Below are positions 1 to 38,828 of a stretch of DNA of 64,000 nt, in pieces. The notes beneath the pieces were generated by a model. It worked only from the letters and a program-made list of their open reading frames with translations, searched no databases and was not told the DNA's origin. The position numbers were made by a program, and so were the translations under genes. Location of the stretch: positions 32,001 to 96,000 of the forward strand of contig CAVYNH010000004.1 of assembly GCA_963769885.1 (NCBI GenBank), given 5' to 3'. Each line of letters starts with the position of its first letter. The stretch's first letter is position 1. This stretch comes from Methanobacteriota archaeon (lineage in GTDB: Archaea > Thermoplasmatota > E2 > DHVEG-1).

Positions 1-552
1 GAAGAAGATGGCGAGCGCCAGCGGCAGCATGAGCAGGGGCTGGGTGGGGAACACCGCGATACCGCCCCAGAAGGGGATGGCACCGACGCCGAAGGCGACG
101 GCCATGTGCCCGAAGATGCCGTGGTGCTTCCCATAGTAGTTGTAGTACAACCCAACGATGACGAGGATGAAGGTGAACACGGCACAGGTCCAGTTGATTT
201 GCCCGGTCTCAGGATAGGAAACATAGGCTCCGAGGAAAATCGATGCGACCATTAGGATGATCCCTGTGTAGTACACGGTTTTCTCCTTGAGGATGCCGGC
301 GGGGACGGGTTTCTTGGGCCGGTTCACCCGGTCCGACTCCAGGTCCGTGATGTCGTTGTGGAGCATGGTGCCGGTGGAGAGGAACGCGGGGGTCAGGATG
401 ACAAGGAGGAGTTGAGAGGCGGAGAGGCTCACGGATTTGTCGATGTAGAGGGAGCAGTTCAGGGCGCTGACGAGTGCTCCGAAGCTGCAGAGAAAGAGGA
501 TGGGCGGACGGATCATCCGTATCCATGCTATGAGTAAGGTCCTGAACCTCAT
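1..552 (-). CDS. UbiA-family prenyltransferase (DGGGP synthase-like), 3' end runs off the window
   Basis: Not in the ORF track. Hand translation from ATG at 552 gives MRFRTLLIAWIRMIRPP...MLHNDITDLESDRVNRPKKPVPAG, with the NDxxDxxxD motif and hydrophobic helices, open to base 1. Confidence 0.85.
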   Translation of the reverse strand, partial: MRFRTLLIAWIRMIRPPILFLCSFGALVSALNCSLYIDKSVSLSASQLLLVILTPAFLSTGTMLHNDITDLESDRVNRPKKPVPAGILKEKTVYYTGIILMVASIFLGAYVSYPETGQINWTCAVFTFILVIVGLYYNYYGKHHGIFGHMAVAFGVGAIPFWGGIAVFPTQPLLMLPLALAIFF

Positions 553-617
553 GGCGTCTGAGAATAGGGAGCAGTATTTATTACTTAATGTTTTCTCCCC
601 CTAGAAAAAGGGGGGGG

Positions 618-1295
618 TTATGCAAGGCCGTAGAACTCGAAGAGTCGGACGATGCCGCCGTGGACCAGGAAGATCACTGACCCGGTGATGGCCAAGGAGA
701 AGATTGCGAGGAGGACTTTCCTGTTGTCGGAGAACCGGGAGCGTTCGATAGAAATGGTTGCGAAGGTGATGAAGAACAGCAGGAGGAACCAGCCGATGAA
801 GTTGAGGACCGGGACGTCGTAGTATTTCAGTCCGGTGAGGGATCCTTTCCAGATCCACCAGTGGTTATGGTGCGCGATCGGGTCCTCTAAGAGGTCCAGG
901 CAGACGCCCGAGGCGCCTGTGATGAGTGAGACTAGAATGATTTGCAAGCGGTTCGTCTTTTCATAGAGGTTGTAGACGACGTGCTTGCCGATGTTCATGA
1001 ACAGGAAGAAGTTGACGCTCCAGGCGACGATGATGCTCAGGGGGACGGCACCGCCGACGGCGGAGATGTAGATGAGATAGCCGTTATAGTAGTAGCGTCC
1101 GCCGGCGACCCCCGCGGACTCGATGAACATGGTGGTGAGGATGATAGGGAGGAAATAAATCAGGGTTTTATGGACCCCGAATCGTTTGTACGAGTAGTAG
1201 AGGAAGACCAGCCAGAGGACGGCGCATAGCACGACAAAGGGGGCCAGCAGCTGGGTCCCCTCGCCGAAATGAGGGTTGAACTCGAGGAGACTCAT
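618..1295 (-). CDS. Carotenoid biosynthesis protein, CruF/DUF422-like membrane hydratase
   Basis: Motifs E-x-x-G...G-R-Y-Y-Y, VPLSIIVAW, DLLEDP, WWIW and VPVLNFIGWF; multiple TM helices. Confidence 0.75.
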   Translation of the reverse strand: MSLLEFNPHFGEGTQLLAPFVVLCAVLWLVFLYYSYKRFGVHKTLIYFLPIILTTMFIESAGVAGGRYYYNGYLIYISAVGGAVPLSIIVAWSVNFFLFMNIGKHVVYNLYEKTNRLQIILVSLITGASGVCLDLLEDPIAHHNHWWIWKGSLTGLKYYDVPVLNFIGWFLLLFFITFATISIERSRFSDNRKVLLAIFSLAITGSVIFLVHGGIVRLFEFYGLA

Positions 1296-1842: not shown

Positions 1843-2847
1843 ATGAAACGGGCAGTTGGGCTGGCACGCCTAATACGGCTACCAGGTATTGGCGCACTCG
1901 GAACCCCCCCTCTGATCGGGGCACTCACCGTCGGAGTCTTCGATATCCCAAGCCTCATCATCCTCTTCGCCATCGGCGCCTTGGCCGGTATCTTCGGCTT
2001 CATCCTCAATGATTTCGTGGACGCCGAACTCGACCGACTCGTCCCCGAACTCCAGGAAAAGCCCTTAGTGAGTGGTGTAATCCAACGCAAGACCGCGGTT
2101 TTCATCTGCGCCCTCTGCGCGATCTTCGCCTTCTTCCTCCTGATCATACTCTATCACGGACAGATTGTGACAACAGGAAGAGTCTATGCCGCGCTGATGC
2201 TCGTCCTCGCCGGCATCCTCGGCAGCATCTACGACATGTACGGCAAGAAGCTGCCCGGCTCCGATTTCCTCGTCTCCATCTCCATGGCCTTCCTCGTCCT
2301 CCTCGGCGCGCTCAGCTTCGGCACCCCCAACGTCCTCACCTGGATCGTCTTTGTCCTCACCTTCAATCAATCCCTGCACATGAACGCCATTGAAGGCGGC
2401 ATCAAAGACGCGGACCACGACTACAAGATGGGCGTCCTTAATATCGCCTACATCGCGGGCGTCCGCGTCGATGGCGAGAAGCTCACCATCCCCTGGCCAT
2501 TTAAAGCCTTCGGCCTCGGCATCCGACTCACCTCCGCCTTCCTCTTCTTTACCCCCTTCCTCTTCTTCGGCTTTGAGTACCCGATCTGGGTCCTCGTCCT
2601 GCTCGCCGTTGCAACCGCCATCGTCCTCTTCTTCAGCTTCCGCCTTGTCATGATGAACCGGTTCGACCGCGACCGGATCCGCAAATACATCGGGCTCCAA
2701 TCCTTCCTCCGCTACAGCCTCGTCCCTATCATGCTCTATCCCGTCATCGGCTGGCTGGCGATGCTCATCCTGATCGTGTACCCCATCGTCTGGTACATCG
2801 CGTTCACCCCGCTCGTCAAAGAAAAACTCTTCAAACCCAGGATGTGA
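1843..2847 (+). CDS. UbiA-family prenyltransferase
   Basis: LNDFVDAELD and IKDADHD Asp-rich motifs; polytopic. ATG at 1843 preferred over TTG at 1831. Confidence 0.85.
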   Translation: MKRAVGLARLIRLPGIGALGTPPLIGALTVGVFDIPSLIILFAIGALAGIFGFILNDFVDAELDRLVPELQEKPLVSGVIQRKTAVFICALCAIFAFFLLIILYHGQIVTTGRVYAALMLVLAGILGSIYDMYGKKLPGSDFLVSISMAFLVLLGALSFGTPNVLTWIVFVLTFNQSLHMNAIEGGIKDADHDYKMGVLNIAYIAGVRVDGEKLTIPWPFKAFGLGIRLTSAFLFFTPFLFFGFEYPIWVLVLLAVATAIVLFFSFRLVMMNRFDRDRIRKYIGLQSFLRYSLVPIMLYPVIGWLAMLILIVYPIVWYIAFTPLVKEKLFKPRM

Positions 2848-2914
2848 GACCCCGGACCACCACCCCAAGCCCCAGTCTCCCCTTGACTGTCCTTTCTCCC
2901 GGAGAAAACGACAA

Positions 2915-2927
2915 ATTATTTATATAG
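2915..2927 (+). promoter_or_regulatory. Probable TATA box
   Basis: ATTATTTATATAG island in GC-rich intergenic DNA upstream of the 3030 gene. Confidence 0.4.
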
Positions 2928-3029
2928 TGAGCGGGCATGCGGTATACGAAAGCCTGGTTAACGCACGACGTTCCCAAGACCTTCCCACACCCAACCATCG
3001 GGGTGTAACCGGGCAGGGGAGACACTCAC

Positions 3030-3998
3030 GTGACTGTTAAACTGACCATGAAGCAACCCTATAGCCGCACGCACATCCTCTCCAAGAAAATCCGCGCATA
3101 CATCGACCTGCTCCGGCCATTCACCCTCATCGCCCCCTTTTTCGTCGCCATGTTCATCATGCTCGCCAGCCTCGTCTCCCACTACCCGTTTGACAAATTC
3201 CCCTCGAACTGGTGGATTACCATCGGCCAGGCGAGCCTGACCCTCGCCTTCCTCAACGCTGCAAGCAACTCCCTCAACCAATCCACCGACGTCGAATCCG
3301 ACAAAATCTCCAAACCCTATCGTCCCATCCCCAAAGGCCTCGTGGAAAAAGACGAAGCCCAGAGCATCGCCTACATCCTCTACCTCTTTGCGCTTCTGCG
3401 AGCCGTCACCATCAACCTCTGGTTCGGCGTCTTCGTCTTCCTCATCATGATCTTCACGGTCGTCTACAGCCTCCCGCCCCGCATGAAACGCTTCCTCTTC
3501 CTCAACCAAACCTGGATCGCCATCCCCCGCGGCCTCTTCGCCGTCCTCGCCAGCTGGAGCGTCTTCAACGACCCCTTCGCCCCCGAACCGCTCCTAATCG
3601 GCATCATCGCCATGGTTTTCTTCATGGGCGCCATGACCACCAAGGACATCGTCGACTGCGAAGCCGACCGAAAAACCGGCACCCGCACCCTCATCAATAC
3701 CTACGGTCTGAAAAAAGCCGCCTACATCAGCCTCCCCTTCCTCATCATCCCCTTCGCCAGCATCCCCGTCTTCATCCATTACGGCATCTTCCAGCCCTAC
3801 TTCCTCCCCCTCACCATCCTCGTCATACCCGCTTTCTACATCTTCTACCTCATGCTTAAACAACACCAGAATCAGACCATGGAGAATGTCTCCGCCTGGT
3901 CCCTCATGTACATCACCTACCTCATCTACGCCGTCAGCTTCACCACGCTGATCATCCTCGGGGAACTCGGATACGTCTCCTTCTTCCCCCATCTCTAA
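3030..3998 (+). CDS. UbiA-family prenyltransferase (NQxxDxxxD variant)
   Basis: LNQSTDVESDKISKPYRPIPKG, YSLPP and KDIVDCEADRKTG motifs. Confidence 0.88.
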   Translation: MTVKLTMKQPYSRTHILSKKIRAYIDLLRPFTLIAPFFVAMFIMLASLVSHYPFDKFPSNWWITIGQASLTLAFLNAASNSLNQSTDVESDKISKPYRPIPKGLVEKDEAQSIAYILYLFALLRAVTINLWFGVFVFLIMIFTVVYSLPPRMKRFLFLNQTWIAIPRGLFAVLASWSVFNDPFAPEPLLIGIIAMVFFMGAMTTKDIVDCEADRKTGTRTLINTYGLKKAAYISLPFLIIPFASIPVFIHYGIFQPYFLPLTILVIPAFYIFYLMLKQHQNQTMENVSAWSLMYITYLIYAVSFTTLIILGELGYVSFFPHL

Positions 3999-4012
3999 CC
4001 CCTTGAGGTCTC

Positions 4013-7000
4013 ATGCCCACACTCCGCGCCGCCGGCATGGATGCTGCCCAGCGAGGACACAACCGACACGCCCTCCTGGCCATCACCCTCGCCCTGGCCC
4101 TCCTCCTCCCCTGCCTCACTGCCAGGCCTCTTCTCGCTGCAGTCGACACTATCCCCTCCTGGAACGCCCAGTTCCCCAGCAGCCAAGAACTCATCATGCC
4201 CTACAACACCAGCCTACCCCGCGCCAAAAACCAGGCCATCGACCTCCCCATCACCTTCCACGGCCCCTGCTGGACCACCAACCCGACCCAGACCTCCGTC
4301 CGCGTCGCCTGCTGGAACGGCACCGGCTGGACCGAACTCCCCTCCCAAATCTATAACCTCCAGACCGCCAACGACACCAGCCACATCAAAGCCTGCAACC
4401 TCGTCTTCCTCATCCCCGACACCGCGAACGGCCACGAACGCTACTACATCCACTACAGCGCCAACCAAACCCCCCCACCCGACTACCCCGACCACCTCAG
4501 CATCGTCGACGCCACCTACCAGTTCGCCCCCATCAAGGAAATCTCCGCCGAAGCCCACTTCTACGGCATCGTCGAAGACGGCTACAGCATCTACGGCATC
4601 GGCGAAGAAGGCAAAGTACTCGACCGCGCCTGCGCCCAAGTCGTCGTCAAACAACACAAAGGAGCCACCACCTTCGACGCCCTCAACTCCGACCAATTCG
4701 TCAGCTATGCCTTCTCCTACTACTACGGCACCGACGAAAAAGACGAAAGCAGCAGCGACCAGGTCTTCCTCAGCAAACAAATCCTCGTCGACGGCCCCCT
4801 CATGGTCACCGTTAAAATCAGCAGCCAATCCAGCCTTGCCGACGTCCGAACCACCAACGAATACCGCTACTACTACACCCCCGGCGACGACAAACGCATC
4901 TACGTCCACGCCAAACACGAAATGCTCAAAGCCGCCACCGTCAAAGGCCTCGACGACATCGACGGCCGCTACGGCAGCATCATCTCAGTAAAAGCCCGCA
5001 GCAGCACCATCCCCAGCCTCAACATGGGCGACATCAACCCCCTCCTCGACTTCAACAGCACCACCAAACCCGTCGAAGAATACCAAATGGACCTCAACCC
5101 CGAAACCACCGACCGCGAATGGATCATCCCCTACCAAGACAACGCCGACCTCGGCCCCGACGCCTGGCTCTCCTACGGCGACGGCATCATCGGCCGCGCC
5201 AGCGCCGTCATCTTCGCCACCAACACCGGTCTCATCACCCAAGGCACCAACGAAAACGACGGCATCCAACTCAAAGTCTGCGAAAAACAATACTTCGACT
5301 TCCTCGGCACCCAAGTCGACTACGCCAGCCTCAACTTCGGCCGTAACTCCTACGACCCCACCAAAGGCCACGACATCACCATCCCCGCCAACCTCATCGT
5401 CCAATTCGACGCCGAAACCTTCTACACCTCCACCGGCGGCTACACCGCCACCCAACAAGAAGCCCACCTCTTCCAATCCCTCATCCGCAACCACACCCAA
5501 AACACCGCTCCCCCCACCAACGCCACCCGCTACAACCTCACCGTCAGCGCCTACTTCGGCGGCACCTTCCTCACATTTCCCTGGCTCGCCGAACACCCCA
5601 CCGTCACCATGCAACTCTACCAAAACGATACCTATCTCACTACCATCCAAGCCAACGGCACGACCATCCTTAGCAGCGCCACCGCCACCTTCCCCAACAT
5701 CACCGCTGGCCTATACATCGCCAAAGTCTACCTCAAAATTAGCAACACCCGCTTCCTCATCGGCGCCGCCGTCATCCCTGTCAACAAAAGCCTTACCACT
5801 CAAATCATCTGCACCTGGGAACGTGCCATCAAAGTCACCGCCCTAAACCAATACAACCACGGCATCCCTAACGTCCTCGTTCACCTCCAGAACAAGGACG
5901 GCCTCATCTTCGATTGCAACACCACTGACACCACCGGCAGCATCACCCTCCATGCCCCCTACAACCCCAACGATCCATACAAAGTCACGGCGTTCTACAA
6001 ACAACGCCAAATCTTTAACACAACCCTCCCTGCAACCCTCCAATATGCCGCTGCGAGCATCACCCTCGCCCTCTACAACTTCACTATAAAACTCGTCGAC
6101 GCCTACAACCTCCCCCCCGCCGTCGACGCCAGCCCACAACTCCTCCTTCAAAACGATAACCAGACTATCCCGATTTTCCCGGATATTGTCAATCAGAACT
6201 ATTATACTTTTACCAATCTCTTCGCTGGCAACTACACCGCCCAAATCCTTTACCGTAACCACATCGACTCCTCCTCTCTTACCATCCCTGAAAACGGCCT
6301 CGTTATCCAGATGATGTTCACCCAGACCTACCCGGCTACCTTTGACCTCTACGACGTGCGAGGAAACCCGATCACCGCCAGCGACGTCCTCCTCAGAGTC
6401 ATGCGCAACAGCACACTAGTCTACAGCTCATTCAAACACAGCATCTCGCTGCCCCCCGCCGAGTACGAAATCCTCTTCTACTCCGAGAACCGTCTCATTG
6501 CATCGAAAACCCTGGACCTCACCAGTGAACACCATAGCAGCATCGTCACTACCCTGGACCCTCAGCTGCCTCCCTTCACTATTGCGGCCAGCATTGCCGC
6601 CTTCGCGGCAGCCGCCATCCTCGCCGCACTCCGCAAGATCCGTCTACGCACTCTCTTTCTCGCCCTCGCCTTCTCCCTTATCCTCCTCGCGATTGTCCAG
6701 CCCTGGTGGGAGCTTGATGGTGCTAGGACGAATCCGTCGGCTACCCGGCATATCGATATGTTCATTCAACCGGGCGTCCTCATGGAGACACTCACAAGCT
6801 CGATGGTCACTCAACGAACGATATCCGAGATGCCCCCGCAGTTCATCTCGTTCCTCGGCCTCCTCATCCTTATACTCATGATCGCCTGTGGTATGGCAGT
6901 AGCAACAATCGGCATCTCATTGCATAAAAAACCGTGGTACAGCCTGATCATCCAGCCCGTTCTCATTTGTCTTCTGATAGGCATCGCGGTTGTATACGTC

Positions 7001-7228
7001 TATGGAACTTCGATTCTCACGAACATCGGCATCGGATCACTCCAAGGTTCGGGACCTTTGATCGTGAGCGTGGGCAACGTCAATTTGAATATCCCCTCAT
7101 CCTGGGGGCTAAGCAGCGGCTTCTATCTTCTCATCCTAGCCGCTGTTGCGACAGCGATAGCATTCTCGCTTACCTTGCTTGAATGGCGAAAGAAGAGACG
7201 ATTGTTAGAAGAGCGAACCCGACCGTGA
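4013..7228 (+). CDS. Large exported/membrane protein with beta-sandwich repeats and C-terminal TM helices; function unknown
   Basis: 1071-aa ORF with an N-terminal hydrophobic segment, beta-rich body and about 5 C-terminal TM segments; starts 14 bp after the UbiA gene. Confidence 0.75.
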   Translation: MPTLRAAGMDAAQRGHNRHALLAITLALALLLPCLTARPLLAAVDTIPSWNAQFPSSQELIMPYNTSLPRAKNQAIDLPITFHGPCWTTNPTQTSVRVACWNGTGWTELPSQIYNLQTANDTSHIKACNLVFLIPDTANGHERYYIHYSANQTPPPDYPDHLSIVDATYQFAPIKEISAEAHFYGIVEDGYSIYGIGEEGKVLDRACAQVVVKQHKGATTFDALNSDQFVSYAFSYYYGTDEKDESSSDQVFLSKQILVDGPLMVTVKISSQSSLADVRTTNEYRYYYTPGDDKRIYVHAKHEMLKAATVKGLDDIDGRYGSIISVKARSSTIPSLNMGDINPLLDFNSTTKPVEEYQMDLNPETTDREWIIPYQDNADLGPDAWLSYGDGIIGRASAVIFATNTGLITQGTNENDGIQLKVCEKQYFDFLGTQVDYASLNFGRNSYDPTKGHDITIPANLIVQFDAETFYTSTGGYTATQQEAHLFQSLIRNHTQNTAPPTNATRYNLTVSAYFGGTFLTFPWLAEHPTVTMQLYQNDTYLTTIQANGTTILSSATATFPNITAGLYIAKVYLKISNTRFLIGAAVIPVNKSLTTQIICTWERAIKVTALNQYNHGIPNVLVHLQNKDGLIFDCNTTDTTGSITLHAPYNPNDPYKVTAFYKQRQIFNTTLPATLQYAAASITLALYNFTIKLVDAYNLPPAVDASPQLLLQNDNQTIPIFPDIVNQNYYTFTNLFAGNYTAQILYRNHIDSSSLTIPENGLVIQMMFTQTYPATFDLYDVRGNPITASDVLLRVMRNSTLVYSSFKHSISLPPAEYEILFYSENRLIASKTLDLTSEHHSSIVTTLDPQLPPFTIAASIAAFAAAAILAALRKIRLRTLFLALAFSLILLAIVQPWWELDGARTNPSATRHIDMFIQPGVLMETLTSSMVTQRTISEMPPQFISFLGLLILILMIACGMAVATIGISLHKKPWYSLIIQPVLICLLIGIAVVYVYGTSILTNIGIGSLQGSGPLIVSVGNVNLNIPSSWGLSSGFYLLILAAVATAIAFSLTLLEWRKKRRLLEERTRP

Positions 7229-8087
7229 AGAGAAAATAGGTCAGGTACATCGCCATCCATGCACTCGTATTTTCCAATGATCGACGCCGATCATCACGTA
7301 CAAGAAGAACAGCAATCAAAACCCCGCAGAGCATAAGTCCCGCCAAGACGAGGAACGCCTGCGGGAGGACTCCAACGATGACCAGGGGTATGACTGCGGC
7401 GAAGGAGGAGACCATGATGATGGCGGAGAGCATCGCTGTCTTGCGCACGCCCAGGGCGTTGCAGAGAGTGTGCGTCCCTACGGAGCGGTCTGCCGCTGTA
7501 TCCAGGACGTCTTTGGTCGCCGTGCCACCGAAGAGGAACACCGACGCGATGCCGCCGATAGCCAGGGGAAGGCTCTGGAACGGGTTTGCGAAGACACTCC
7601 ATGATGCTAAAATCCCGAACAACCCCCGGGGTAGAGCCACCCAGAGTTGGTTGATGGCCAGGTGCTGTTTCATGCGGGGAGGCAGCGAATAAGTGATTGT
7701 GAAGAGGGCGATGATGAACACGAACCCAGCGAAGAGGACGTGGACGAAGAACGCTATAGATAAGGACAGGAAATATAAGAGGAGGGAAATCGTGTACGCT
7801 TCCCGAAGCGTGATGAGCTTTTTTGGTAGGGGTCGATAGGGCTTCGAGAGGCAGTCTTCCTCGTAGTCTGCTGCTTGGTTCAGCGCATTGGAGGCGCCGT
7901 TGAGGAGGGCGAGGCTGAGACTGGCCGGCAACATCGCGCCGAGAAGAGAGAGAATGGGGAGGGAGTGGGCGGCGGCGTAGACGTAGCTGGCAGCCATGAC
8001 GCTGATGCTGACGATGAGTGGGGCGAGTAGGGTGAATGGCCGTAGGAGAAGCAGGTACTTGTGGAGGGTACTGAAGGTCTTCCTCAT
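7170..8087 (-). CDS. UbiA-family prenyltransferase (NQxxDxxxD variant), paralog of 3030..3998
   Basis: LLRPFTLLAP, LNQAADYEEDCLSKPYRPLPK, YSLPPRMK and KDVLDTAADRSVG motifs. Confidence 0.88.
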   Translation of the reverse strand: MRKTFSTLHKYLLLLRPFTLLAPLIVSISVMAASYVYAAAHSLPILSLLGAMLPASLSLALLNGASNALNQAADYEEDCLSKPYRPLPKKLITLREAYTISLLLYFLSLSIAFFVHVLFAGFVFIIALFTITYSLPPRMKQHLAINQLWVALPRGLFGILASWSVFANPFQSLPLAIGGIASVFLFGGTATKDVLDTAADRSVGTHTLCNALGVRKTAMLSAIIMVSSFAAVIPLVIVGVLPQAFLVLAGLMLCGVLIAVLLVRDDRRRSLENTSAWMAMYLTYFLFTVGFALLTIVSSFAIQAR

Positions 8088-8148
8088 CTATAGGGTGTTC
8101 TGTTTGTACTGCCTTATAAAGGATTTGTGACAGGTGGTGTCCGTTTGG

Positions 8149-8652
8149 TTAGGGGTGGTCTTTGAGTCGGTCTTGTCCGTGGATTTCTTTGATGATGTCG
8201 ACGACGGCTGGAGGGACGAGATGTGTCCAGCGGCCGCCGGTGGCGAGTCGGCTGCGGATTTCTTTGCCGCTGTAGTGGTCGCGGTGATAGAGGGGGGTGC
8301 GTTTGACGTGGAAGCCGTGCTGAGTGAAGAGGCGGGTGGTTTCGGGGTTGTTGGTGATGACGTCGGTGAAGTCGGTGACGTAGGTGAGGACGTGGTCGAC
8401 CCAGTGGGGTGGGTCGTGGATGTCGGGGATGGCGATGATGCGGTAGTTGGTGATGCCGGCGTTGGTGAGTGATCTGGTGATCATTTCGCGTCGTTCGTCG
8501 TAGGAAAAAGGGTTCTCGGCGGTGTGGCTGTATTGGGAGGAGCCGACGCCGATGATGATTTCGGTGTAGGTGGGGCTGAGGGTTTGGATGAGGTGGAGGT
8601 GGCCGTTATGGAATGGTTGGAAGCGTCCGATGAGGAGTGCGTTCATGGCCAT
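8149..8652 (-). CDS. nadM: Nicotinamide-nucleotide adenylyltransferase
   Basis: GRFQPFHNGH (HxGH), GSSQ..HT.ENPF, ER..MI and SGKEIR motifs. Confidence 0.92.
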   Translation of the reverse strand: MAMNALLIGRFQPFHNGHLHLIQTLSPTYTEIIIGVGSSQYSHTAENPFSYDERREMITRSLTNAGITNYRIIAIPDIHDPPHWVDHVLTYVTDFTDVITNNPETTRLFTQHGFHVKRTPLYHRDHYSGKEIRSRLATGGRWTHLVPPAVVDIIKEIHGQDRLKDHP

Positions 8653-8673
8653 TCCACCTGGCTCATTTTTGTG

Positions 8674-10737: not shown

Positions 10738-10848
10738 TCTTTTGTGGTGAGAGGATTACTGCATATAAGGCTTATGGATTTGGATTCAGTGTTGTACGGG
10801 TGTTGTGTGTGTTTTCTCTGTCAGTTTAAATGGTGGGGCGTCGTTGGC

Positions 10849-10857
10849 TTTATATTT
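10849..10857 (+). promoter_or_regulatory. Probable TATA box of ychF
   Basis: TTTATATTT about 30 bp upstream of ATG 10888. Confidence 0.5.
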
Positions 10858-10887
10858 GGTTTTGTTCTACCTAGATAATAGTAACGT

Positions 10888-12081
10888 ATGCAGCTTGGTA
10901 TTGTCGGGAAGCCGAACGTGGGGAAGTCGACGTTCTTCAACGCGGCGACGAAGGCGCATGCGGAGATCGCGAATTATCCGTTCACGACGATTGAGGCGAA
11001 CCGCGGGGTGATGTTCATCCGCAAGCCGTGCCCGTGCCGGGAGTTTCATGTGACGTGTACGCCGCATAACGCGCGGTGTATCGATGGGGTCCGGTTCGTG
11101 CCGATCGAGGCGTTGGACGTCGCAGGGCTGGTGCCGGACGCTCATAACGGCCGCGGTCTTGGGAATAAGTTCCTGGATGATCTGCGGCAGGCGCATGCAC
11201 TCATCCACATCGTGGACGCGTCCGGTAGTACCGATGCGGAGGGCAACCCGACAAACGTCGGTGCTCACGATCCGGCGGAGGATATCGCTTTCCTTGAGAA
11301 AGAGATTGATTACTGGTTGTTCGGGATCATCAAGAAGACGTGGGAGTTGAACGCGCGCAAGTCGGAGCTTGAGGGCAAGAAGATTGAGCAGATGCTTGGG
11401 GAGCAATTGACCGGGCTGGGGATCAAGGAGGAGCATGTGACCGCGGCGATCCGGAAGCTGAACCTGGACCGGGAGCGGCCGGCGTTGTGGAAGGACCAGG
11501 ATCTGTTTCGGTTCACGAGTTTTTTGCGGGTGTTCAGCAAGCCGATGATCATCGCGCTCAATAAGAGTGATATGGCGCCGGAGGCGCTGATGAAGAAGCT
11601 TCTCGCGATGCCGGGGTACACGATGATTCCGACGAGCGCGGAGAGCGAGCTTGCGCTGGGCAACGCGTTGGATAAGGGCATCATCGACTATGTGCCAGGG
11701 GCGGGGAGTTTCAAGGTCCTGCATCCTGAGACGCTGTCGGAGAAGCAGAAGGGGGCGCTGGAGTACATCCAGACGCATGTCCTTGGGAAGTACGGTTCGA
11801 CTGGTGTCCACCAATGTATCGATGAGGCGGTGCGGATGCTGGACCTTATCGTGGTCTACCCTGTGGCGGATGAGCATCATCTGACCGACAAGGAGGGTCG
11901 GGTGCTGCCGGATGCGTTCCTCGTGCCGAAGGGGACGACCGCGAAGGAGTTGGCGTTCAAGGTGCATACGGATCTGGGGAACCATTTCATCCGCGCGATC
12001 GATGCCCGGGCGCATCGCGTCATCGGCGCGGACCACCAGGTAAAAGACGGAGATATCATCAGCATCATCGCGGACATCTAA
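10888..12081 (+). CDS. ychF: YchF/Obg-family GTPase/ATPase with TGS domain
   Basis: GKPNVGKST, NYPFTT, DVAGL, NKSD and C-terminal TGS (VHTDL) motifs. Confidence 0.93.
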   Translation: MQLGIVGKPNVGKSTFFNAATKAHAEIANYPFTTIEANRGVMFIRKPCPCREFHVTCTPHNARCIDGVRFVPIEALDVAGLVPDAHNGRGLGNKFLDDLRQAHALIHIVDASGSTDAEGNPTNVGAHDPAEDIAFLEKEIDYWLFGIIKKTWELNARKSELEGKKIEQMLGEQLTGLGIKEEHVTAAIRKLNLDRERPALWKDQDLFRFTSFLRVFSKPMIIALNKSDMAPEALMKKLLAMPGYTMIPTSAESELALGNALDKGIIDYVPGAGSFKVLHPETLSEKQKGALEYIQTHVLGKYGSTGVHQCIDEAVRMLDLIVVYPVADEHHLTDKEGRVLPDAFLVPKGTTAKELAFKVHTDLGNHFIRAIDARAHRVIGADHQVKDGDIISIIADI

Positions 12082-30421: not shown

Positions 30422-30579
30422 ATGAATGAATCCCGCATTTTTATTAATATAAGGAGAAAGTTATTTTAATGACTATTTAAACCTTGCCCCTTTTCCAAAG
30501 AGAGAAGCTTCCGGATTGGCATTCCGTCACCCTATCTTTATATATGATTCATAGAAGAACCTACATCGGGTAAGGAGAG

Positions 30580-32460: not shown

Positions 32461-32515
32461 CTGGTTTGGGGAAACGTATAAGGAATAGGTCTGAGATATG
32501 GGAAGGCGAGGAGAG

Positions 32516-33388
32516 ATGATGCGCTCTATTCGGAAGGTGCGGAATTCCGCGGTTGCGGGAGTCATCGAGGCACTGCTGTTAGTCGGTCTGGTCGCGATCA
32601 TCATTTCCATGATCCAGCTGGTCTACATCCCTCAGGTCATGGAGCAGCGGGAGGCGGATCACATGGATCAAGTCTTCAATCAACTGTCTCAGTTGAAAGC
32701 GATGGTCGATGTCCAGATGATGACGAAGTCGTCCTCACCAATTTCCTCGACCCTGACCTTGGGGAGTCCGAAGCTGCCGTACTTCCTGACAGTGCAATCA
32801 GTGGGCCGTTTGGCGTACGAGAATGAAACCAGCTCGAATATCACCGTGTACAACTCGGTGACCCCTGTTAGAGTGGTTCTACCGTCTTTGCAGTATTTGG
32901 GTGAGAATTCGTATTTCGTGAATCAGGAGTACGTGCTGGAGGGCGGCGGGATCATTGTGAATCAGGATGAGGGGGGCTCGGTGATGCGGGCGAATCCTTC
33001 AATCGATGTCCAGAATGAGACCTATACTATCGTCGTTAATTGGACGTTCCCGTATTTCAGTGGCGTCGAAGGGAAGACGCAGACGGAAGGCCTAGGGAGA
33101 TGCTGCGTTCGGACGAATTTTTCCTCACTGTTGCCGCCGCAGAGCTTTACCATTCATCCAGGAGGGTTTTTCAGGATCTATACGAAATACGACGCTGCCT
33201 GGAACAAGACGATGCATGATTTCTTAGGGATCTATGAGAAGAACGGGTACATTACGATTTATAGCTACGATGCAGAACCGAGGAACTATGTCGAGGTTCA
33301 TGTCAGCCTGTTAAGCTCAAAGGATGTTTTCTTGGAGTTGCATCCGATGGTCATTAAGGTTCAAATCGGTCCAGGGTGGATTGAATAG
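32516..33388 (+). CDS. Archaeal type IV pilin-like protein (class III signal peptide)
   Basis: RKVRNSA|VAGVIEALLLVGLVAIIISMIQLVYIP followed by E..H..V; beta-rich remainder. Confidence 0.65.
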   Translation: MMRSIRKVRNSAVAGVIEALLLVGLVAIIISMIQLVYIPQVMEQREADHMDQVFNQLSQLKAMVDVQMMTKSSSPISSTLTLGSPKLPYFLTVQSVGRLAYENETSSNITVYNSVTPVRVVLPSLQYLGENSYFVNQEYVLEGGGIIVNQDEGGSVMRANPSIDVQNETYTIVVNWTFPYFSGVEGKTQTEGLGRCCVRTNFSSLLPPQSFTIHPGGFFRIYTKYDAAWNKTMHDFLGIYEKNGYITIYSYDAEPRNYVEVHVSLLSSKDVFLELHPMVIKVQIGPGWIE

Positions 33389-33412
33389 GCGCAAACCTGG
33401 AACGAGCCTTGT

Positions 33413-34192
33413 ATGAGCGAGGTAATAACGGAGAAGAATGAGCAGGAGGTTGTCCTGCGGACCCGCATTCCCGGGTTTGATGAGTTGTTCGCAGAGGGCG
33501 GCATCCCTCGGCATAACGCGGTCCTCATCGCGGGGGGGACGGGGACGGGGAAGAGCACGTTCTGCCGCCAGGTCTGTTTCAACCTGGTGAGCGCGGGGCG
33601 GCACTGCATGTACGTCAGCTTCGAGGAGAGCACCGAGAAAATCGTACGCAGCATGACCGCGTTCGGGTGGGATGCGAAGGCGTACGTGGACAACGGTTCG
33701 CTGCTGATCCAGAAGATTAACCCGTTGGATATCCTGCGGATGAAGTTTGGGTCGGTGAGCGGGACCGGGTCGGCGACGGAGCTATCGTATAAGATCAAGC
33801 CACTGATCATCCCGAAGGGTTTCAACCCGGAGCTCATTGTCGTCGACTCCCTGACCGCGATCATCTCCGCGTCAATCAGCAAGGAGAAGAACTATCGGGT
33901 GTACCTGCAGCAGCTGTTCAGTTTCTTTGAGGAGACGGGGGCGACATCGTTTTTGATTACGGAGACGGAGCCGATGCCGACGCGGTTCAGCGAGACCGGC
34001 ATCGAGGAGTTCCTCGCAGATGGGATCCTGGTGTTATATAATATTCAGCGGGGGGACCGTCGGGAGAACGCGGTGGAGGTGTTGAAGATGCGGTACTCGC
34101 AGCATCAGAAAAAGGTGTTTCTGCTGGAGATAAATAGGGAGGGGATCCGGGTGTATCCGGACCGCCAGGTGATCCTGCCGTCTTATAAATAG
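33413..34192 (+). CDS. KaiC/RAD55-like single-domain ATPase
   Basis: TRIPGFDEL..GGIP, GGTGTGKS, VSFEE, VVDS, EFLADG and LKMR motifs. Confidence 0.92.
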   Translation: MSEVITEKNEQEVVLRTRIPGFDELFAEGGIPRHNAVLIAGGTGTGKSTFCRQVCFNLVSAGRHCMYVSFEESTEKIVRSMTAFGWDAKAYVDNGSLLIQKINPLDILRMKFGSVSGTGSATELSYKIKPLIIPKGFNPELIVVDSLTAIISASISKEKNYRVYLQQLFSFFEETGATSFLITETEPMPTRFSETGIEEFLADGILVLYNIQRGDRRENAVEVLKMRYSQHQKKVFLLEINREGIRVYPDRQVILPSYK

Positions 34193-34413
34193 GTGTAGGG
34201 TTCTTTGTGGTCGTCGAGGCGTTTGACGTTGAAGGTGGTGAGGAGCGCCTCGAGGGCTTTGACCTGTTGTTTGGACAGACCGATGCGGCGGATGAGGATG
34301 TTGTCGTACTCGTCGTAGATCGTGAGGGTGCCGGCCTCGTGGTTAGAGATGGCCTTGAGGATTCGGTAGTTCTGCACCCAGATCCAGATTTTGATGCTGT
34401 GGTTCTGTGCCAT
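34183..34413 (-). CDS. Small hypothetical protein, paralog of 30161..30421
   Basis: Aligns with 30161..30421 over about 60 aa; lies between the two KaiC-like genes. Confidence 0.8.
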   Translation of the reverse strand: MAQNHSIKIWIWVQNYRILKAISNHEAGTLTIYDEYDNILIRRIGLSKQQVKALEALLTTFNVKRLDDHKEPYTYL

Positions 34414-34558
34414 GGGAATCTGTCCCTGTCTTCTTAATTATATGTTCGGCTTTATAAATATATAAATATTTTCATAAAAATTAATATAAACCGTGCGACA
34501 GGCTCGCAGACTCGGTGATAAATTAATTATACGTGCAGGCCGATACCAGACCCTGAGG

Positions 34559-35827: not shown

Positions 35828-36871
35828 TTATTGGACTTTGAACCAGCCGCGGCGCCGCATGATCATGTAGATAAACACCGAGGACAGGACCGTAGAGATT
35901 ACAAGAATCGTCAGCGACACATGCCAGTCGAGAAAATTGAACGTCGGCATCCCGAAGATCGTCGCCAGCGTGTTGGGGACCATAACGACGGTCGCCAGTA
36001 CCGCCAGCCACGCGGCGAGGAACGCGAGCCGATTGTTCAACATCTGCAGCTGGTTATTGTAAATCGTCTGCAGCACCTCAAGACCCGAGGCCAGCACCTC
36101 ACTCATATGCTCGGCCAAGGAGATGTTCCGTGAGATATCATCGCCGAGGATCCCGATACGCTGCAGGAGCTTAGGGCTGTCCGTGATGAGCTCCGCGTCT
36201 CCGTACCGCAGGGAGTTGACGACATCGAGGGACGCCCACAGCGTGTTGAGGTACATGATGAGCCCGTGTTTCATCTTGTAGATGTCGTTGCCGATCTCGA
36301 CGCGGGGGGCATGGATGTCGACCATGTACTTGCCGAGCTCGTCACCCTCCTCCTCGATCGCCCGTAGGCCCATGAAGTTGCGCTCGTTGTTCTCGTCAAG
36401 CAGGCGGGTGACCAGGACCGTGATCTTGTCATTGGAGGGAAGGTCTTTTTTGATCTTCTTCATGAAGATGTCGGCGTACCGGTACAGCTTCTCTAGCCGC
36501 ACAACCTCCTGAGGGTGGATCGTGACGACTAGGTTCTTCCGTATGAGGATTAGCAAGGGGTAGACGTTCACCTCGAACTCATGGACCCGGATCGCCGGTA
36601 TCATCAGCCCTAGCTCGTACTCGTTGTCCTCGTAGGCCGAGAACCGGTTCGACAGAATCGTGGTGACGAGCTGCTCGCTGAACTTCAACGACGAGGCGAT
36701 CGCCAGGCTGTCCTTGAGGATGTCAGAAACCGAAAAATCCATCCATTCCAGTTCTTCCTCGTGCAGAAGGCTGGTGATCTCCGTGAAATCATCACTCTCA
36801 ATCTTTTGCGCACCCTGAGCAGACAGTGAGACGTAAAATGCCTTCTTGGTGTTCTTCTCAGCCTCCCCCAT
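35828..36871 (-). CDS. corA: CorA-family divalent cation transporter
   Basis: Soluble N-domain, two C-terminal TM helices, FGMP (GMN-like) loop. Confidence 0.82.
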   Translation of the reverse strand: MGEAEKNTKKAFYVSLSAQGAQKIESDDFTEITSLLHEEELEWMDFSVSDILKDSLAIASSLKFSEQLVTTILSNRFSAYEDNEYELGLMIPAIRVHEFEVNVYPLLILIRKNLVVTIHPQEVVRLEKLYRYADIFMKKIKKDLPSNDKITVLVTRLLDENNERNFMGLRAIEEEGDELGKYMVDIHAPRVEIGNDIYKMKHGLIMYLNTLWASLDVVNSLRYGDAELITDSPKLLQRIGILGDDISRNISLAEHMSEVLASGLEVLQTIYNNQLQMLNNRLAFLAAWLAVLATVVMVPNTLATIFGMPTFNFLDWHVSLTILVISTVLSSVFIYMIMRRRGWFKVQ

Positions 36872-37058
36872 GGTGGGCTTCCCCTAGTGAAATCTGACCC
36901 TACATCGGCCCACACCATTTAAAGGCTGCGAAAGTATCACACCATGCGCCCTGCCATTTTTCAAATGAACCGGCGTGTTCCTTCCATCCGATGCGTTTTA
37001 TATTTGACAAAACTATTAATATACATATGACCCTAGATTCCTCTCATAGAGGACATCG

Positions 37059-38828
37059 ATGAAACGCAAGAATCTCAGGGGCTCCACCGGCATCCGATTC
37101 ATAGCGTCGTCCCTCGTCCTACTATTCCTCACCTCACCCTGCGTCTCACTCTGTTCTTCCAAAGTGATCAGCATGAACCCATCGATGACCGTGGACGGCC
37201 GGATCTTGTACGCACCCATGGATTCCCAGGCAACGTATTTGATCAACAGCGACGGCAGCGTGAACCACATCTGGCTCAGCCAGTATTTCCCCGGGGAGAT
37301 GGTCCGCTGGCTCGGCGACGGCTCCATCCTTCGCACCATCAAGGTCAGCCTATCCGGTGTCGGCGGCTCCGGCGGAGGCATCCAACGAGTAACATGGGAC
37401 GGGTCCGTCACCTGGGACTACCGATATAACACCGAGCAAAACCTCAGCCACCACGACATCATGCCGCTGCCCAACGGCAACGTGCTCATGATCGCCTGGG
37501 AGAAAAAAACCCGCACCGAAGCAATCGCCGCCGGCAGAAACCCAGCCACTATCACCTCGGACACCTTCATGCCGGACCACCTCATCGAAGTCAAACCCAC
37601 CGGCCCCACCAGCGGCCAGATCGTCTGGGAATGGCACGTCTGGGACCACCTCATCCAAGACTACGACCCCACCGCAGCCAACTACGGCGACGTCGCCCAG
37701 CACCCCGAACTCATCGACCTCAACTACGGCATCATCGACCCCCTCCTCTCCGACTGGCTCCACACCGACTCCATCGACTACAACCCACAATTCAACCAAA
37801 TCCTCCTCAGCGTCCACAACTTCAACGAAATCTGGGTCATCGACCACAGCACCACCACCCAGCAGGCCGCAGGCCACACCGGCGGCCGCAGCGGCAAGGG
37901 AGGCGACCTCCTCTACCGCTGGGGCAACCCCCAGGCCTACCGGGTAGGCACCGCAGCCGACGACCAGCTCTTCGGCCAGCACGACGCCGCCTGGATCAAG
38001 CCGGGCTACCCCGGCGAAGGAGACATCCTCATCTTCAACAACGGCTTCAACCGCCCCACCGGCATCTTCTCCACCGTCGTAGAAATCATCCCCCCGGTCA
38101 ACGAAACCGGGGTGTACACGTTGCAGCCTGGCGCCGCGTACGGACCGGACGCCCCAATCTGGAGCTATGAGGCCGATCCCCCCGCCAGCCGCTACTCCGG
38201 GCTGTTCTCCGGCGCCCAACGGCTCACCGACGGCAACACCTTGATCTGCGATGGAGCAGCCGGACGATTCTTCGAAGTCACCCCCTACGGCGACACTGTC
38301 TGGGAATACCTCAACATGCACCCCAATCCAGTCATGAACAACATTTTCAAAATCGTCTTCATCCCCACCGAGGTACCCAACGGCCCGAATCTTCACTGCA
38401 TCGGAAGCTTCTCCTGGACCAGGATCAGGCCCGGCCAGACCGTCACTGGCAGCTTCCAGGTCCAAAACATCGGCTCATCCGGCTCACGGCTCAACTGGAC
38501 CACCAACACCTCTTCCCTCACCTGGGGGACCTGGTCATGCCAGCCGGCCCACGAGAAGAACCTCTTACCGACGGTCGGCTCGCTTACCGTCAACGTCACC
38601 GTCACCGCCCCCGACCAGGCCCATGGACGTTTCGAGGGATACCTCCGCGTGGAGAACACGCAGGACCCTACCGATTTCGAACTCATCCCCGTCACCCTCA
38701 AAACTCCCGTCATCACACAGCACTTCCCCTTCCTTTGGCAGCTGCTTCACCAGATACTCCAGCGACATCCCCTCCTTGAAAAAATAGCAGATGCCCTCCC
38801 TCAGACATCCAGGCCTTTTTTCAGTTAA
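37059..38828 (+). CDS. Secreted aryl-sulfate sulfotransferase (ASST)-like protein
   Basis: HHDIMPLPNGN, DWLHTDSI, LYRWGNP, QHDA and SGAQRL..GNTLIC motifs; signal peptide. Confidence 0.85.
   Translation: MKRKNLRGSTGIRFIASSLVLLFLTSPCVSLCSSKVISMNPSMTVDGRILYAPMDSQATYLINSDGSVNHIWLSQYFPGEMVRWLGDGSILRTIKVSLSGVGGSGGGIQRVTWDGSVTWDYRYNTEQNLSHHDIMPLPNGNVLMIAWEKKTRTEAIAAGRNPATITSDTFMPDHLIEVKPTGPTSGQIVWEWHVWDHLIQDYDPTAANYGDVAQHPELIDLNYGIIDPLLSDWLHTDSIDYNPQFNQILLSVHNFNEIWVIDHSTTTQQAAGHTGGRSGKGGDLLYRWGNPQAYRVGTAADDQLFGQHDAAWIKPGYPGEGDILIFNNGFNRPTGIFSTVVEIIPPVNETGVYTLQPGAAYGPDAPIWSYEADPPASRYSGLFSGAQRLTDGNTLICDGAAGRFFEVTPYGDTVWEYLNMHPNPVMNNIFKIVFIPTEVPNGPNLHCIGSFSWTRIRPGQTVTGSFQVQNIGSSGSRLNWTTNTSSLTWGTWSCQPAHEKNLLPTVGSLTVNVTVTAPDQAHGRFEGYLRVENTQDPTDFELIPVTLKTPVITQHFPFLWQLLHQILQRHPLLEKIADALPQTSRPFFS

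Follow-up and report, generated by a model that had tools for sequence, protein, structure and literature searches.

Over blocks a few kilobases long, freely evolving positions in the archaeal genome studied here have been driven almost wholly to C or A on one strand and to G or T on the other. This is a strand-polarised substitution bias tied to chromosome position. Starting from discrete sites, the strand that runs 5'->3' outwards is pushed toward C (and A) and the complementary strand toward G (and T); the sites are mostly intergenic regions that hold promoters, a canonical ORB origin among them; and each polarity continues until it meets the opposite polarity from the next site, which leaves abrupt flips at the sites and ramps scaled to their spacing in between. 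Because the block pattern is set more by position than by gene direction, it points to a strong, previously undescribed, one-directional DNA process that starts at many fixed sites.

Strand skew in the window

The window (the whole stretch of DNA analysed, 64,000 nucleotides) belongs to an uncultured sediment archaeon (Thermoplasmatota). Its kilobase-scale strand skew is confirmed. Domains were delimited by HMM segmentation, and the profile was taken from four-fold degenerate sites. Keto skew in 500-bp windows ranges from -0.62 to +0.49 (binomial sd 0.045, z up to 14), and its absolute value exceeds 0.25 in 29 of 77 such windows at 1-38.5 kb vs 2 of 50 at 39-64 kb. At four-fold sites, the plus-strand skew is near saturation, at -0.97 to -1.00 over 17.5-19 kb and +0.84 to +0.97 over 22-24.5 kb (extremes -1.00 at 17.5-19 kb and +0.97 at 22-23 kb). 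The first-pass annotation had described alternating A+C- and G+T-rich blocks; its counts are exact (54/60 A+C at 18601-18660, 49/60 G+T at 23821-23880), its block coordinates agree with the segmentation, and the G+T bias that it reported for intergenic DNA is present (97/130 at 10741-10870, 68/101 at 24190-24290).

From left to right, an A/C-rich domain (1923..6145, four-fold keto skew -0.73) extends over two UbiA genes and into the gene for a 1071-aa surface protein (4013..7228), of which it includes the first two-thirds; along this gene, the four-fold skew weakens from -0.95 to -0.22. A gradual rise through zero (6148..7809), spanning the convergent junction 7228(+)/7170(-), leads into a G/T-rich domain (7815..11979, +0.74; HMM, profile, Pfam) that holds CTP-transferase (-), LonB (-) and YchF (10888..12081, +), the last skewed against its own orientation; the divergent intergenic region inside this domain (10738-10887) has a keto skew of +0.43. 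Four-fold sites are 68% G in YchF and 74% C in the neighbouring LonB. The Ig-domain gene that follows (12163..12903, +) has low GC (0.45), is not in the same-genus genome, breaks the domain and looks like a recent insertion.

The strongest A/C-rich domain (15890..19997, -0.82, with -1.00 at 18.0-18.5 kb) spans the gene for the CCA-adding enzyme and the initial two-thirds of the NosD-PKD gene (17256..20927, +), whose four-fold skew runs -0.91, -0.76, -0.15 and +0.11 along the gene; the fading of the bias inside this gene and 4013..7228 had been noticed from the outset. Thr makes up 21.6% and His 5.3% of residues 1-640 of the NosD-PKD protein, vs 6-9% and about 2% in low-GC orthologues, which bears out the earlier remark on Thr/His-loaded proteins. 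Another gradual rise through zero (20003..21182) starts within the 3' end of this gene, and the G/T-rich domain that follows (21185..24637, +0.84) contains hyp325, a PAS histidine kinase, a response regulator and the intergenic region 24190-24291 (keto +0.35).

An abrupt G/T to A/C flip (27772..28046, +0.73 to -0.31) occupies the divergent intergenic region between the ArgRS gene (-) and a C25 peptidase gene (+), and a step of the same direction (30422..30579, flanks -0.08 to -0.59) occupies another, bordered by an 86-aa minus-strand gene and the NosD-PKD626 gene. Over the plus-strand DUF7289 and KaiC genes (32498..34192), the coding strand is G/T-rich, with skew rising from +0.26 to +0.71 as the next flip is neared, and the direction of skew is identical in the sister species. 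KaiC (33413..34192, +) and YchF are thus both G/T-rich like the DNA around them, as the first-pass annotation had stated. The flip that they approach (34414..34492, +0.64 to -0.64) is the sharpest of the window; its location is an AT-rich promoter region from which a 76-aa minus-strand gene (34183..34413) and a second KaiC-like gene diverge, and the sister species has kept it. Ahead of the low-GC region, the final domain is A/C-rich (36860..38814, -0.66) and lies over a 589-aa plus-strand gene. The low-GC DNA itself (38816..64000, GC 0.25-0.45) is almost without skew and provides an internal control, with two short exceptions, one at 41091-41457 and one at a native-like gene in an A/C-rich domain (56905-58527).

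Position and gene strand

Genome-wide, 504 strong domains (median length 1.4 kb) take up 44% of coding DNA, and low-GC islands have no skew. The autocorrelation of the skew reaches its minimum at 5.5-6 kb and is back to zero at 11-12 kb, which fits the period of 6-13 kb first suggested. Skew is also present in intergenic DNA, where it tracks that of the flanks (r=0.77, slope 0.36, n=805).

The claim that the bias ignores gene orientation is overstated. Position outweighs strand: R2 is 0.56 with the neighbours' skew vs 0.28 (0.275) with a gene's own strand, and the partial r with the neighbours' skew, given all three strands, is 0.74. Orientation nevertheless matters, as the coding strand is A/C-rich at 84% of the sites in strong domains and at the 5' ends of 66 of 70 long genes. 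Opposite-strand neighbours are correlated in the skew of the physical strand (r=+0.46), and pairs of one G-class and one C-class gene make up 134 of 421 opposite-strand pairs vs 48 of 787 same-strand pairs. At about 28 divergent junctions, with 56 gene starts, the skew carries on without a flip. Genes skewed 'backwards' include YchF, KaiC and several ribosomal-protein genes. Coding-strand four-fold skews differ within one co-oriented ribosomal-protein cluster (uL3 -0.91, uS3 -0.27, eL19 -0.89, uS5 +0.17, uL30 +0.42), which shows that expression is not the cause; uS2, on the same strand just past the cluster, has +0.65. These data support an effect that is local, positional and exerted on the physical strand, as opposed to codon preference. 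None of the three outcomes that the first-pass annotation named as refuting it was observed: gene strand alone does not predict the skew, intergenic DNA has it, and so does a related genome.

Related genomes agree. A same-genus genome, assembled separately, carries the same domains, and a contig from a separate sequencing run has an identical LonB with the same neighbouring genes; low-GC sister genera with identical gene order lack the domains. Three other genera or species share gene order and orientation at the locus, so inversions have not occurred here. LonB is of A/C type in some species and of G/T type in others, and the zero crossing near it lies about 1.2 kb further right in the sister species, inside minus-strand genes, with gene order unchanged; the skew class is therefore not intrinsic to the gene.

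Flips, ramps and the ORB origin

Abrupt flips run down (G/T to A/C) in 35 cases and up in 8 (p=4e-5); at divergent intergenic regions, the counts are 30 and 0. Most occupy promoter regions between divergent genes, and the canonical ORB origin has one as well. Between successive flips, the ramp is proportional to their spacing (classes 3-6, 6-10 and 10-20 kb), mean |skew| is near 0.5 at all spacings, and arms lengthen from about 1.5 kb in short intervals to about 3.5-5 kb where intervals are long. In many long genes, skew grows with distance from the promoter.

The ORB origin adjoins orc1 and has two inverted mini-ORBs, one of them exact (TTCCAGTGGAAA), flanking an AT-rich stretch. Its flip has the same polarity as the others, and its right arm, over minus-strand genes, is skewed against their orientation; among tandem minus-strand junctions, a flip of this kind occurs in only about 1%. 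As the only flip with independent evidence of an origin, it calibrates the polarity, although it is a single site and is also the orc1 promoter. The switch persists for only 2-3 kb, and no chromosome-scale skew or two-replichore pattern was found to extend from it, so that, as a start site, it would not exceed the promoter sites in strength. The first-pass annotation had suggested a search of the switch points for a shared motif; at flips other than the origin, we found no ORB and nothing enriched beyond TATA-like words.

Base composition and mismatch repair

On the G/T-rich strand, G makes up about 87% and T only about 7%, and silent-site GC climbs together with skew; simple C>T deamination, part of the chemistry first invoked, fits neither observation. 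In strongly skewed stretches of lower GC, the A+C-rich strand has G and T each near 6-8%, which is a true signature of keto depletion.

NucS was found in G000, G001 and 17 of 26 family genomes, unskewed relatives included, and MutS in none of the 26. Skewed and unskewed relatives show no gene-content difference for Y-family polymerase, EndoV, UDG, PolB or MutS. EndoMS cuts G/T, G/G and T/T mismatches but not A/C, C/C or A/A (PMC4838380, PMC6159521).

Proposed DNA synthesis from promoter-linked sites

Our preferred explanation, held tentatively and at somewhat less than even probability, is that the skew is the footprint of DNA synthesis from many fixed promoter-linked sites, with NucS/EndoMS possibly setting its axis. 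The number of fixed start sites would be well over a hundred, with synthesis proceeding outward from each in both directions, perhaps through origin-independent or recombination-dependent replication, and the pattern would be a map of fork polarity comparable with those of yeast origins and human skew N-domains. The keto/amino axis may arise because NucS/EndoMS, the only mismatch repair found in the family, spares A/C-type mismatches: errors that escape it in the new strand would swap G or T for A or C, and a leading-type new strand that is more error-prone or less well corrected would turn A/C-rich. Most coding strands would be A/C-rich because the start sites sit at promoters. Of the local positional processes proposed at first, dispersed initiation of synthesis is the one that we favour, and persistent R-loops are not supported. 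We know of no archaeal precedent for more than 100 start sites in 2 Mb.

Alternative explanations

Break or nick hot spots in promoter regions, followed by 5'->3' resection, would also leave mirror-image skew on either side of each site; we regard this as unlikely. Damage while single-stranded, together with error-prone refilling, might deplete the exposed 3'-ended strand of C and A (C>G, A>G, C>T), or heteroduplex repair might be biased during gene conversion between chromosome copies. The polarity fits, with the forward strand G/T-rich left of a flip and the reverse strand right of it, an arrangement shared with meiotic hot spots in humans, at which the resected strand carries C>N and A>N changes over 1-2 kb (PMC7615360). 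A G/T-rich strand made mostly of G is what C>G and A>G would yield, the rise of silent-site GC with skew is expected of a conversion-like process, and GRINS, the closest bacterial analogue, are linked to gene conversion (PMC8256042). Refilling under NucS-only repair would probably give an equal polarity. Against resection, the arms have no fixed decay length, mean |skew| is still near 0.5 at mid-interval, skew increases away from the promoter in many long genes, plateaus at +-1 extend for several kilobases, and none of 26 family genomes yielded a Y-family (Rev1-like) polymerase.

An asymmetry of transcription-coupled damage or repair that makes the non-template strand A/C-rich, with antisense or read-through transcripts from bidirectional promoters producing the backward genes and ramps, is also improbable in our view. 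The 84% concordance with gene strand and the A/C-rich 5' ends of long genes are expected under it (the former is predicted by this model as well as by DNA synthesis), as are flips in promoter regions with TATA-like words. Genes facing a convergent neighbour fade toward the 3' end and tandem genes often do not, and the KaiC skew could be read-through from the 76-aa gene. Some boundaries coincide with operon ends, as at 8.1 kb, where skew changes from +0.86 to +0.18 between CTP-transferase and UbiA; this boundary resembles a transcription unit and counts against the synthesis reading. To our knowledge, however, every described transcription-associated asymmetry has a sign opposite to that seen here. 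The sign is likewise opposite to established exposed-single-strand chemistry (PMC7615360); exposure of the non-template strand in persistent R-loops, one of the mechanisms first proposed, would give G/T-rich coding strands. There is no dose effect (histidine kinase gene -0.89 vs aEF1A -0.46 and thermosome gene -0.66), uS5, uL30 and uS2 would require more antisense than sense transcription, and YchF has no minus-strand gene downstream, where gene order is conserved. Skew also crosses the 28 or so divergent promoter regions undiminished, and the zero crossing shifts between sister species under unchanged gene order.

Selection on codons (C-ending vs G-ending classes) or for unstructured A/C-rich messages would account for most of the signal lying at third positions and for the majority of coding strands being C-rich at silent sites, but it is very improbable, being contradicted by intergenic skew, class switches within single genes, dependence of class on the neighbours' physical strand and opposite classes of one gene in different species. 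Least probable of all is an artefact or accident of history (a chimeric or mis-assembled contig, strand-specific sequencing errors, or replication skew scrambled by inversions): the genome is metagenome-assembled in 7 contigs and GC changes sharply at 38.8 kb, but proteins are intact and match Pfam families, and the second-run contig, the same-genus genome and the gene order conserved across genera contradict it.

Comparison with known systems

Yeast origins and human skew N-domains have one-polarity jumps at initiation sites, ramps scaled to spacing and many sites per chromosome, as here. Their skews are far weaker than the archaeon's, whose silent-site amplitude is near saturation (up to +-1.0), whose spacing is about 5-12 kb on a 2-Mb chromosome, and whose candidate sites lie in promoter regions without an origin motif. 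Leading strands in Saccharomyces cerevisiae, K. lactis and C. albicans are rich in A+C (PMC3459929), and the ORB origin and other flips of the archaeon have that same polarity.

Meiotic double-strand-break hot spots (Hinch et al. 2023, PMC7615360) share with the archaeon a mirror-image asymmetry (1-2 kb each side), loss of C and A from the strand whose 3' end faces the site, and prominent C>G and A>G. They differ in that the mutations there are de novo and the resection length fixed, whereas here the composition is a fixed state and arm length scales with site spacing.

In GRINS, GC skew and TA skew are intense and correlated, and within about 1 kb on a single strand they may take either sign (PMC8256042), as here; in both systems, third codon positions are affected and proteins are recoded, either toward Pro/Thr/His/Gln or toward the opposite set. 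Streptomyces has GRINS most often (PMC8256042), and Actinobacteria are without MutS and depend on NucS/EndoMS (PMC6159521), as this archaeal family does, which may link the two systems. By definition, however, GRINS are duplicated regions (>500 bp, >80% identical, within one gene cluster) tied to gene conversion between repeats (PMC8256042), whereas the archaeal domains are single-copy (a search of the genome against itself gave only 87-208 bp matches of 69-80% identity), include intergenic DNA in their coverage and form an ordered sawtooth.

Classical origin-centred GC/keto skew of bacteria and some archaea likewise switches sign at the origin, as at the orc1/ORB origin here, with G accompanying T and C accompanying A, but has the two-replichore pattern that is missing here, and the strand leaving the origin is G/T-rich rather than A/C-rich. 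A recent survey found archaea to be largely without strand-specific mutational skew (PMC12999951); the present genome contradicts it.

Strand bias in the window and across the genome

The 2.09-Mb assembly of the studied archaeon (G000) comprises seven contigs, and the window spans positions 32001-96000 of contig C4. Its relatives are Thermoplasmatota from sediments, and the one same-genus genome used here (G001; hereafter the sister species) is a lake-sediment MAG. Keto skew is given as (G+T-A-C) on the plus strand unless the coding strand is named, with negative values denoting A/C-rich DNA and positive values denoting G/T-rich DNA.

The first-pass annotation described kilobase-scale alternation of A+C-rich and G+T-rich blocks, and every one of its base counts was reproduced exactly on recount. 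In 500-bp windows, keto skew ranges from -0.62 to +0.49 (binomial standard deviation 0.045), and the signal at four-fold degenerate sites is far stronger than that in bulk DNA. The orientation of 22 genes in 1-33.4 kb was set by Pfam. Four-fold sites are 88% C and 3% G in the PAS histidine kinase gene and 74% C in LonB (minus strand); those of the adjoining YchF (plus strand; 68% G, 17% C) are the complement of LonB. Plus-strand four-fold skew, in 500-bp bins, has its extremes at 18.0-18.5 kb (-1.00) and 22.0-22.5 kb (+0.97). It varies smoothly within genes and crosses zero at about 7.0, 20.4 and 32.2 kb, with abrupt switches from G/T-rich to A/C-rich (hereafter flips) at 28.0 and 34.45 kb and a lesser step at 30.5 kb.

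Genes were called genome-wide by a model using codon positions 1 and 2 only, which separated 22 Pfam-supported genes from 16 shadow ORFs with zero overlap. Longest-ORF calling was dropped for mis-assigning strands, which it does because skewed DNA carries long shadow ORFs. Across the whole genome, the median absolute keto skew per kb is 0.14, and the value exceeds 0.25 in a quarter of 1-kb windows. Skew is restricted to DNA with GC above about 0.5, and low-GC islands are flat. Four-fold GC skew is spread nearly evenly from -1 to +0.9 over 1734 genes. A hidden Markov model delimited 504 strong domains (254 A/C-rich and 250 G/T-rich; median 1.4 kb, longest 8.2 kb), which cover 44% of coding DNA. 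The autocorrelation of skew is positive up to 2.5 kb, has its minimum (-0.27) at 5.5-6 kb and is back at zero by 11-12 kb, compatible with the period of 6-13 kb initially proposed.

Gene strand and position

Position outweighs gene strand as a determinant of skew, though strand counts too. The coding strand is A/C-rich at 84% of four-fold sites in strong domains, and at the 5' end of 66 of the 70 genes of at least 800 aa; 67 domains are entirely discordant with gene strand. A gene's own strand explains 27.5% of the variance of its plus-strand skew, versus 56% for the plus-strand skew of its neighbours, and the partial correlation with the neighbours' skew is 0.74 when all three gene strands are controlled. 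Physical-strand skew is correlated between opposite-strand neighbours (r=+0.46), in convergent and divergent pairs alike. Pairs that mix a gene with C-dominated and a gene with G-dominated four-fold sites account for 134 of 421 opposite-strand pairs, versus 48 of 787 same-strand pairs. Additionally, intergenic skew tracks that of the flanks (r=0.77, slope 0.36, n=805), and about 28 divergent junctions (56 gene starts) are traversed by skew without weakening.

Gene strand therefore does not fully predict the skew, which is present in intergenic DNA and in a related genome. The positional mutational process put forward in the first-pass annotation was largely right; its statement that domains ignore gene orientation was too strong, given the 84% concordance, even though position is the better predictor, and independence from gene direction was thereby overstated.

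Flips and ramps

Abrupt flips (within ±50 four-fold sites) run from G/T-rich to A/C-rich in 35 cases and in reverse in 8 (p=4e-5). Scored across intergenic regions, flips number 38 in the first direction and 11 in the second; those at divergent intergenic regions number 30 and 0. When two small minus-strand genes are counted, every flip of the window (28.0, 30.5 and 34.45 kb) falls in an AT-rich divergent promoter region. Each of these genes (30161-30421, 86 aa; 34183-34413, 76 aa) sits precisely at a flip and is the divergent upstream neighbour of a plus-strand gene. They may be related to each other, and the second has a conserved counterpart in the sister species. A comparison of 6-8 k-mers between 38 flip and 584 other intergenic regions yielded TATA-like words only, none of which survives multiple-test correction. 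Nor are flips favoured at tRNA genes, of which 3 of 37 have a downward and 2 an upward flip.

At a looser threshold (143 flips), the mean profile between consecutive flips is a ramp, rising gradually through zero, that scales with flip spacing. Intervals of 3-6, 6-10 and 10-20 kb give similar decile profiles, with the zero crossing at about 2, 4 and 5.5 kb, respectively, and mean absolute skew stays near 0.5 throughout the intervals. The profile is that of two opposed fluxes cancelling at their meeting point, not of a decay of fixed length. The scaling of the ramp could be mimicked by the way gene orientation alternates from one divergent promoter to the next. Skew often grows away from the start in long genes with a tandem downstream neighbour, and it fades over the last 1-2.5 kb of genes facing a convergent neighbour.

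The orc1 site

The orc1/cdc6 gene lies on the minus strand of contig C6 (C6:260359-261630), with a NucS/EndoMS gene directly adjoining; both genes and the neighbouring origin region fall within C6:259505-262032 (locus L026:4505-7032). The intergenic region upstream of orc1 contains two inverted mini-ORBs, one an exact TTCCAGTGGAAA, with G-strings directed outwards and an AT-rich stretch between them; judged by these motifs, it is a predicted canonical archaeal origin. A mini-ORB search of the contigs found paired intergenic copies with at most one mismatch at the orc1 site only.

At the orc1-adjacent intergenic region, skew drops from +0.78 to -0.19, a flip in the usual direction, and the minus-strand genes in its right arm are skewed against their own orientation; only about 1% of tandem minus-strand junctions flip as this site does. 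The strand leaving the ORB site 5'->3' is A/C-rich on both sides, not G/T-rich. Thus, at the sole site where bidirectional synthesis is expected, the outgoing strand is A/C-rich. The effect extends only 2-3 kb, and cumulative four-fold skew has no V shape indicative of two replichores on the 785-, 564- and 392-kb contigs. Cumulative gene orientation peaks near the orc1 site; genes therefore tend to point towards the origin, not away from it.

Related genomes and protein composition

The wave recurs in the sister species with reduced amplitude (r=0.68-0.74 over 22 orthologues). YchF, DUF7289 and KaiC are skewed backwards there as well (i.e. with a G/T-rich coding strand), and both species have the flip at 34.45 kb. 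Near LonB, skew passes through zero about 1.2 kb further right in the sister species, within minus-strand genes, and only one of the two species shows skew in the CTP-transferase and response regulator genes. Inversion of replication-skewed segments was rejected as a source of the pattern: the sister species (75% nucleotide identity) and two other genera (GC 0.31-0.35) have an identical gene order and orientation over 3-35 kb. In the other genera of the family, silent-site GC is 0.15-0.40 and the pattern is not common to them; therefore, the trait arose or intensified alongside a rise in silent-site GC to about 0.85. Within a single genus, the process can lift silent-site GC from roughly 25% to roughly 85%.

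Most of about 80 species, GC-rich ones among them, have a flat LonB; elsewhere its four-fold GC skew is either of A/C type (-0.59 to -0.67) or of G/T type (+0.55 to +0.61). The LonB loci included L050, L052, L053, L059, L068, L070 and L095, which are regions of other Thermoplasmatota. In several low-GC species, the locus has a GC skew of ±0.5-0.6, of either sign, with opposite AT skew, so that weaker forms of the phenomenon are perhaps widespread across the group.

Thr, His and Val usage varies with local skew. Thr makes up 10.1% of residues in the most A/C-rich stretches of the genome and 5.2% in the most G/T-rich ones; the corresponding values for Val are 5.1% and 9.3%. In residues 1-640 of the NosD-PKD protein, Thr content is 21.6%, against 15.0% for the sister species and 6.4-8.6% for low-GC orthologues. 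This surface protein domain (22% Thr versus 6-9% in relatives) illustrates the extent to which proteins can be rewritten by local mutational bias.

Substitution spectrum and repair genes

On the A/C-rich strand of strongly skewed stretches, base frequencies at four-fold sites are C 0.87, A 0.07, G 0.03 and T 0.02. At lower GC, strongly skewed stretches are rich in A+C and have 6-8% each of G and T, and the primary effect is therefore the loss of keto bases. Between the studied genome and the sister species, C replaces G, T and A at four-fold sites of the C-type strand; at 75% identity, these sites are saturated and the differences unpolarised, and rates fitted to them under a reversible model are circular. 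Among changes at codon positions 1 and 2 polarised with low-GC outgroups, A>C is far above T>G whether the region is skewed or neutral; selection and codon structure dominate the spectrum at these positions.

The axis and polarity of the skew agree with two published chemistries. Exposed single strands lose C and A (PMC7615360), and EndoMS/NucS cuts G/T, G/G and T/T mismatches while leaving A/C, C/C and A/A uncut (PMC4838380; PMC6159521). NucS is found in 17 of 26 family genomes (G000-G024 and G041; completeness 64-95%), including the studied genome and the sister species, and MutS and Y-family DNA polymerase were each found in none of these 26. When the skewed genus was contrasted with 24 other genera for gene content, EndoV, UDG, NucS and PolB were present in skewed and unskewed genomes alike. 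NucS can thus set the axis of the skew but not its intensity, because unskewed relatives also carry it.

Candidate mechanisms

We tentatively favour, with somewhat less than even confidence, dispersed promoter-linked starts of DNA synthesis, which would leave a footprint resembling fork polarity. A more specific form, which we hold to be doubtful, has the genus copying or continually re-synthesising its chromosome from promoter-linked start sites, well over a hundred in number and independent of any ORB motif, so that silent-site skew would be an evolutionary record of fork direction. The keto/amino axis would then come from the blind spot of NucS/EndoMS for A/C-type mismatches: by our own derivation, the errors that survive NucS-only repair would all swap a keto for an amino base in the new strand. 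The same cause might perhaps lie behind GRINS in NucS-dependent Streptomyces.

An unlikely alternative is that promoter hot spots of breakage and resection, or of biased conversion, generate the skew. Equally unlikely is a skew set by the polarity of transcription, antisense transcripts included. The strand concordance of strong domains (84%) fits this explanation; own strand accounts for 27.5% of the variance (R2 0.275), and the 67 wholly discordant domains would call for antisense transcripts. Skew does not strengthen with expression as judged from gene identity. In a co-oriented ribosomal-protein cluster, coding-strand skew is -0.91 in uL3, -0.27 in uS3, -0.81 in uL6, -0.89 in eL19, +0.17 in uS5 and +0.42 in uL30, and it is +0.65 in uS2, on the same strand just past the cluster; the histidine kinase gene (-0.89) is more strongly skewed than aEF1A (-0.46). 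A skew driven by expression was rejected on this range and this ordering. Selection or artefact is very improbable: codon or mRNA selection, which would confine the skew to coding DNA and fix it to the coding strand, is excluded by the intergenic signal, the within-gene gradients, the neighbour effect and the LonB class differences across species, and artefactual or chimeric assembly is ruled out by intact conserved proteins, the sister genome and an independent contig (from a separate sequencing run, with identical LonB and the same neighbouring genes).

Relation to known strand asymmetries

The closest known patterns are the skews at yeast origins, human N-domains and GRINS (PMC8256042). The first two share with the present case single-polarity jumps at discrete sites (here 35 versus 8, and 30 versus 0 at divergent regions) and a ramp scaled to spacing, but origin sequence features are found here at one site only. 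In yeasts, the A/C-rich strand leaves the origin (PMC3459929), as it does at the orc1 site. Classical oriC-centred skew likewise switches sign at the origin, but its two replichores and G/T-rich outgoing strand are both absent here. GRINS resemble the pattern in having intense GC and AT skews of the same sign and recoded proteins. They are, however, duplicated regions longer than 500 bp and more than 80% identical within one gene cluster (PMC8256042), whereas window positions 7001-27000 searched against their own genome gave only matches of 87-208 bp at 69-80% identity.

We found no account of such a pattern in archaea in the literature. A 2026 survey reported little strand-specific mutational skew in archaea (PMC12999951), and the studied genome is a clear counter-example to that conclusion. 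Methods that assume homogeneous composition (codon usage, horizontal transfer, phylogeny) will fail on such genomes. Should the skew be a record of DNA synthesis or of strand exchange, the sequence alone of an unculturable organism could reveal where these processes start and which way they run, and origin-independent replication in archaea would become testable on natural genomes. Were the reading with more than a hundred starts true, the skew would provide the first fork-direction map of origin-independent replication in archaea, and the NucS link, if true, would give the archaeal pattern and GRINS a shared cause.

Other features of the window

Four UbiA-family prenyltransferase genes lie within 8 kb at 1-8087 (1-552, 1831-2847, 3030-3998 and 7170-8087), with a carotenoid-synthesis-family gene among them (618-1295). 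Between YchF and the next conserved gene lies an Ig-domain (Big_7) gene (12163-12903; GC 0.45) that has no counterpart at the corresponding position in the sister species or in two other genera; it looks like a recent single-gene insertion. At 38.8-39.1 kb, GC falls from about 0.58 to 0.25-0.45, and the window beyond is almost unskewed; 38800-64000 is probably foreign or recently acquired DNA. A minus-strand gene of 2004 aa (39627..45641) lies in this low-GC part, as do short inserts of GC-rich DNA (46.0-46.5 and 47.0-48.0 kb) and one native-like gene (57205..58182) within an A/C-rich domain (56905-58527).
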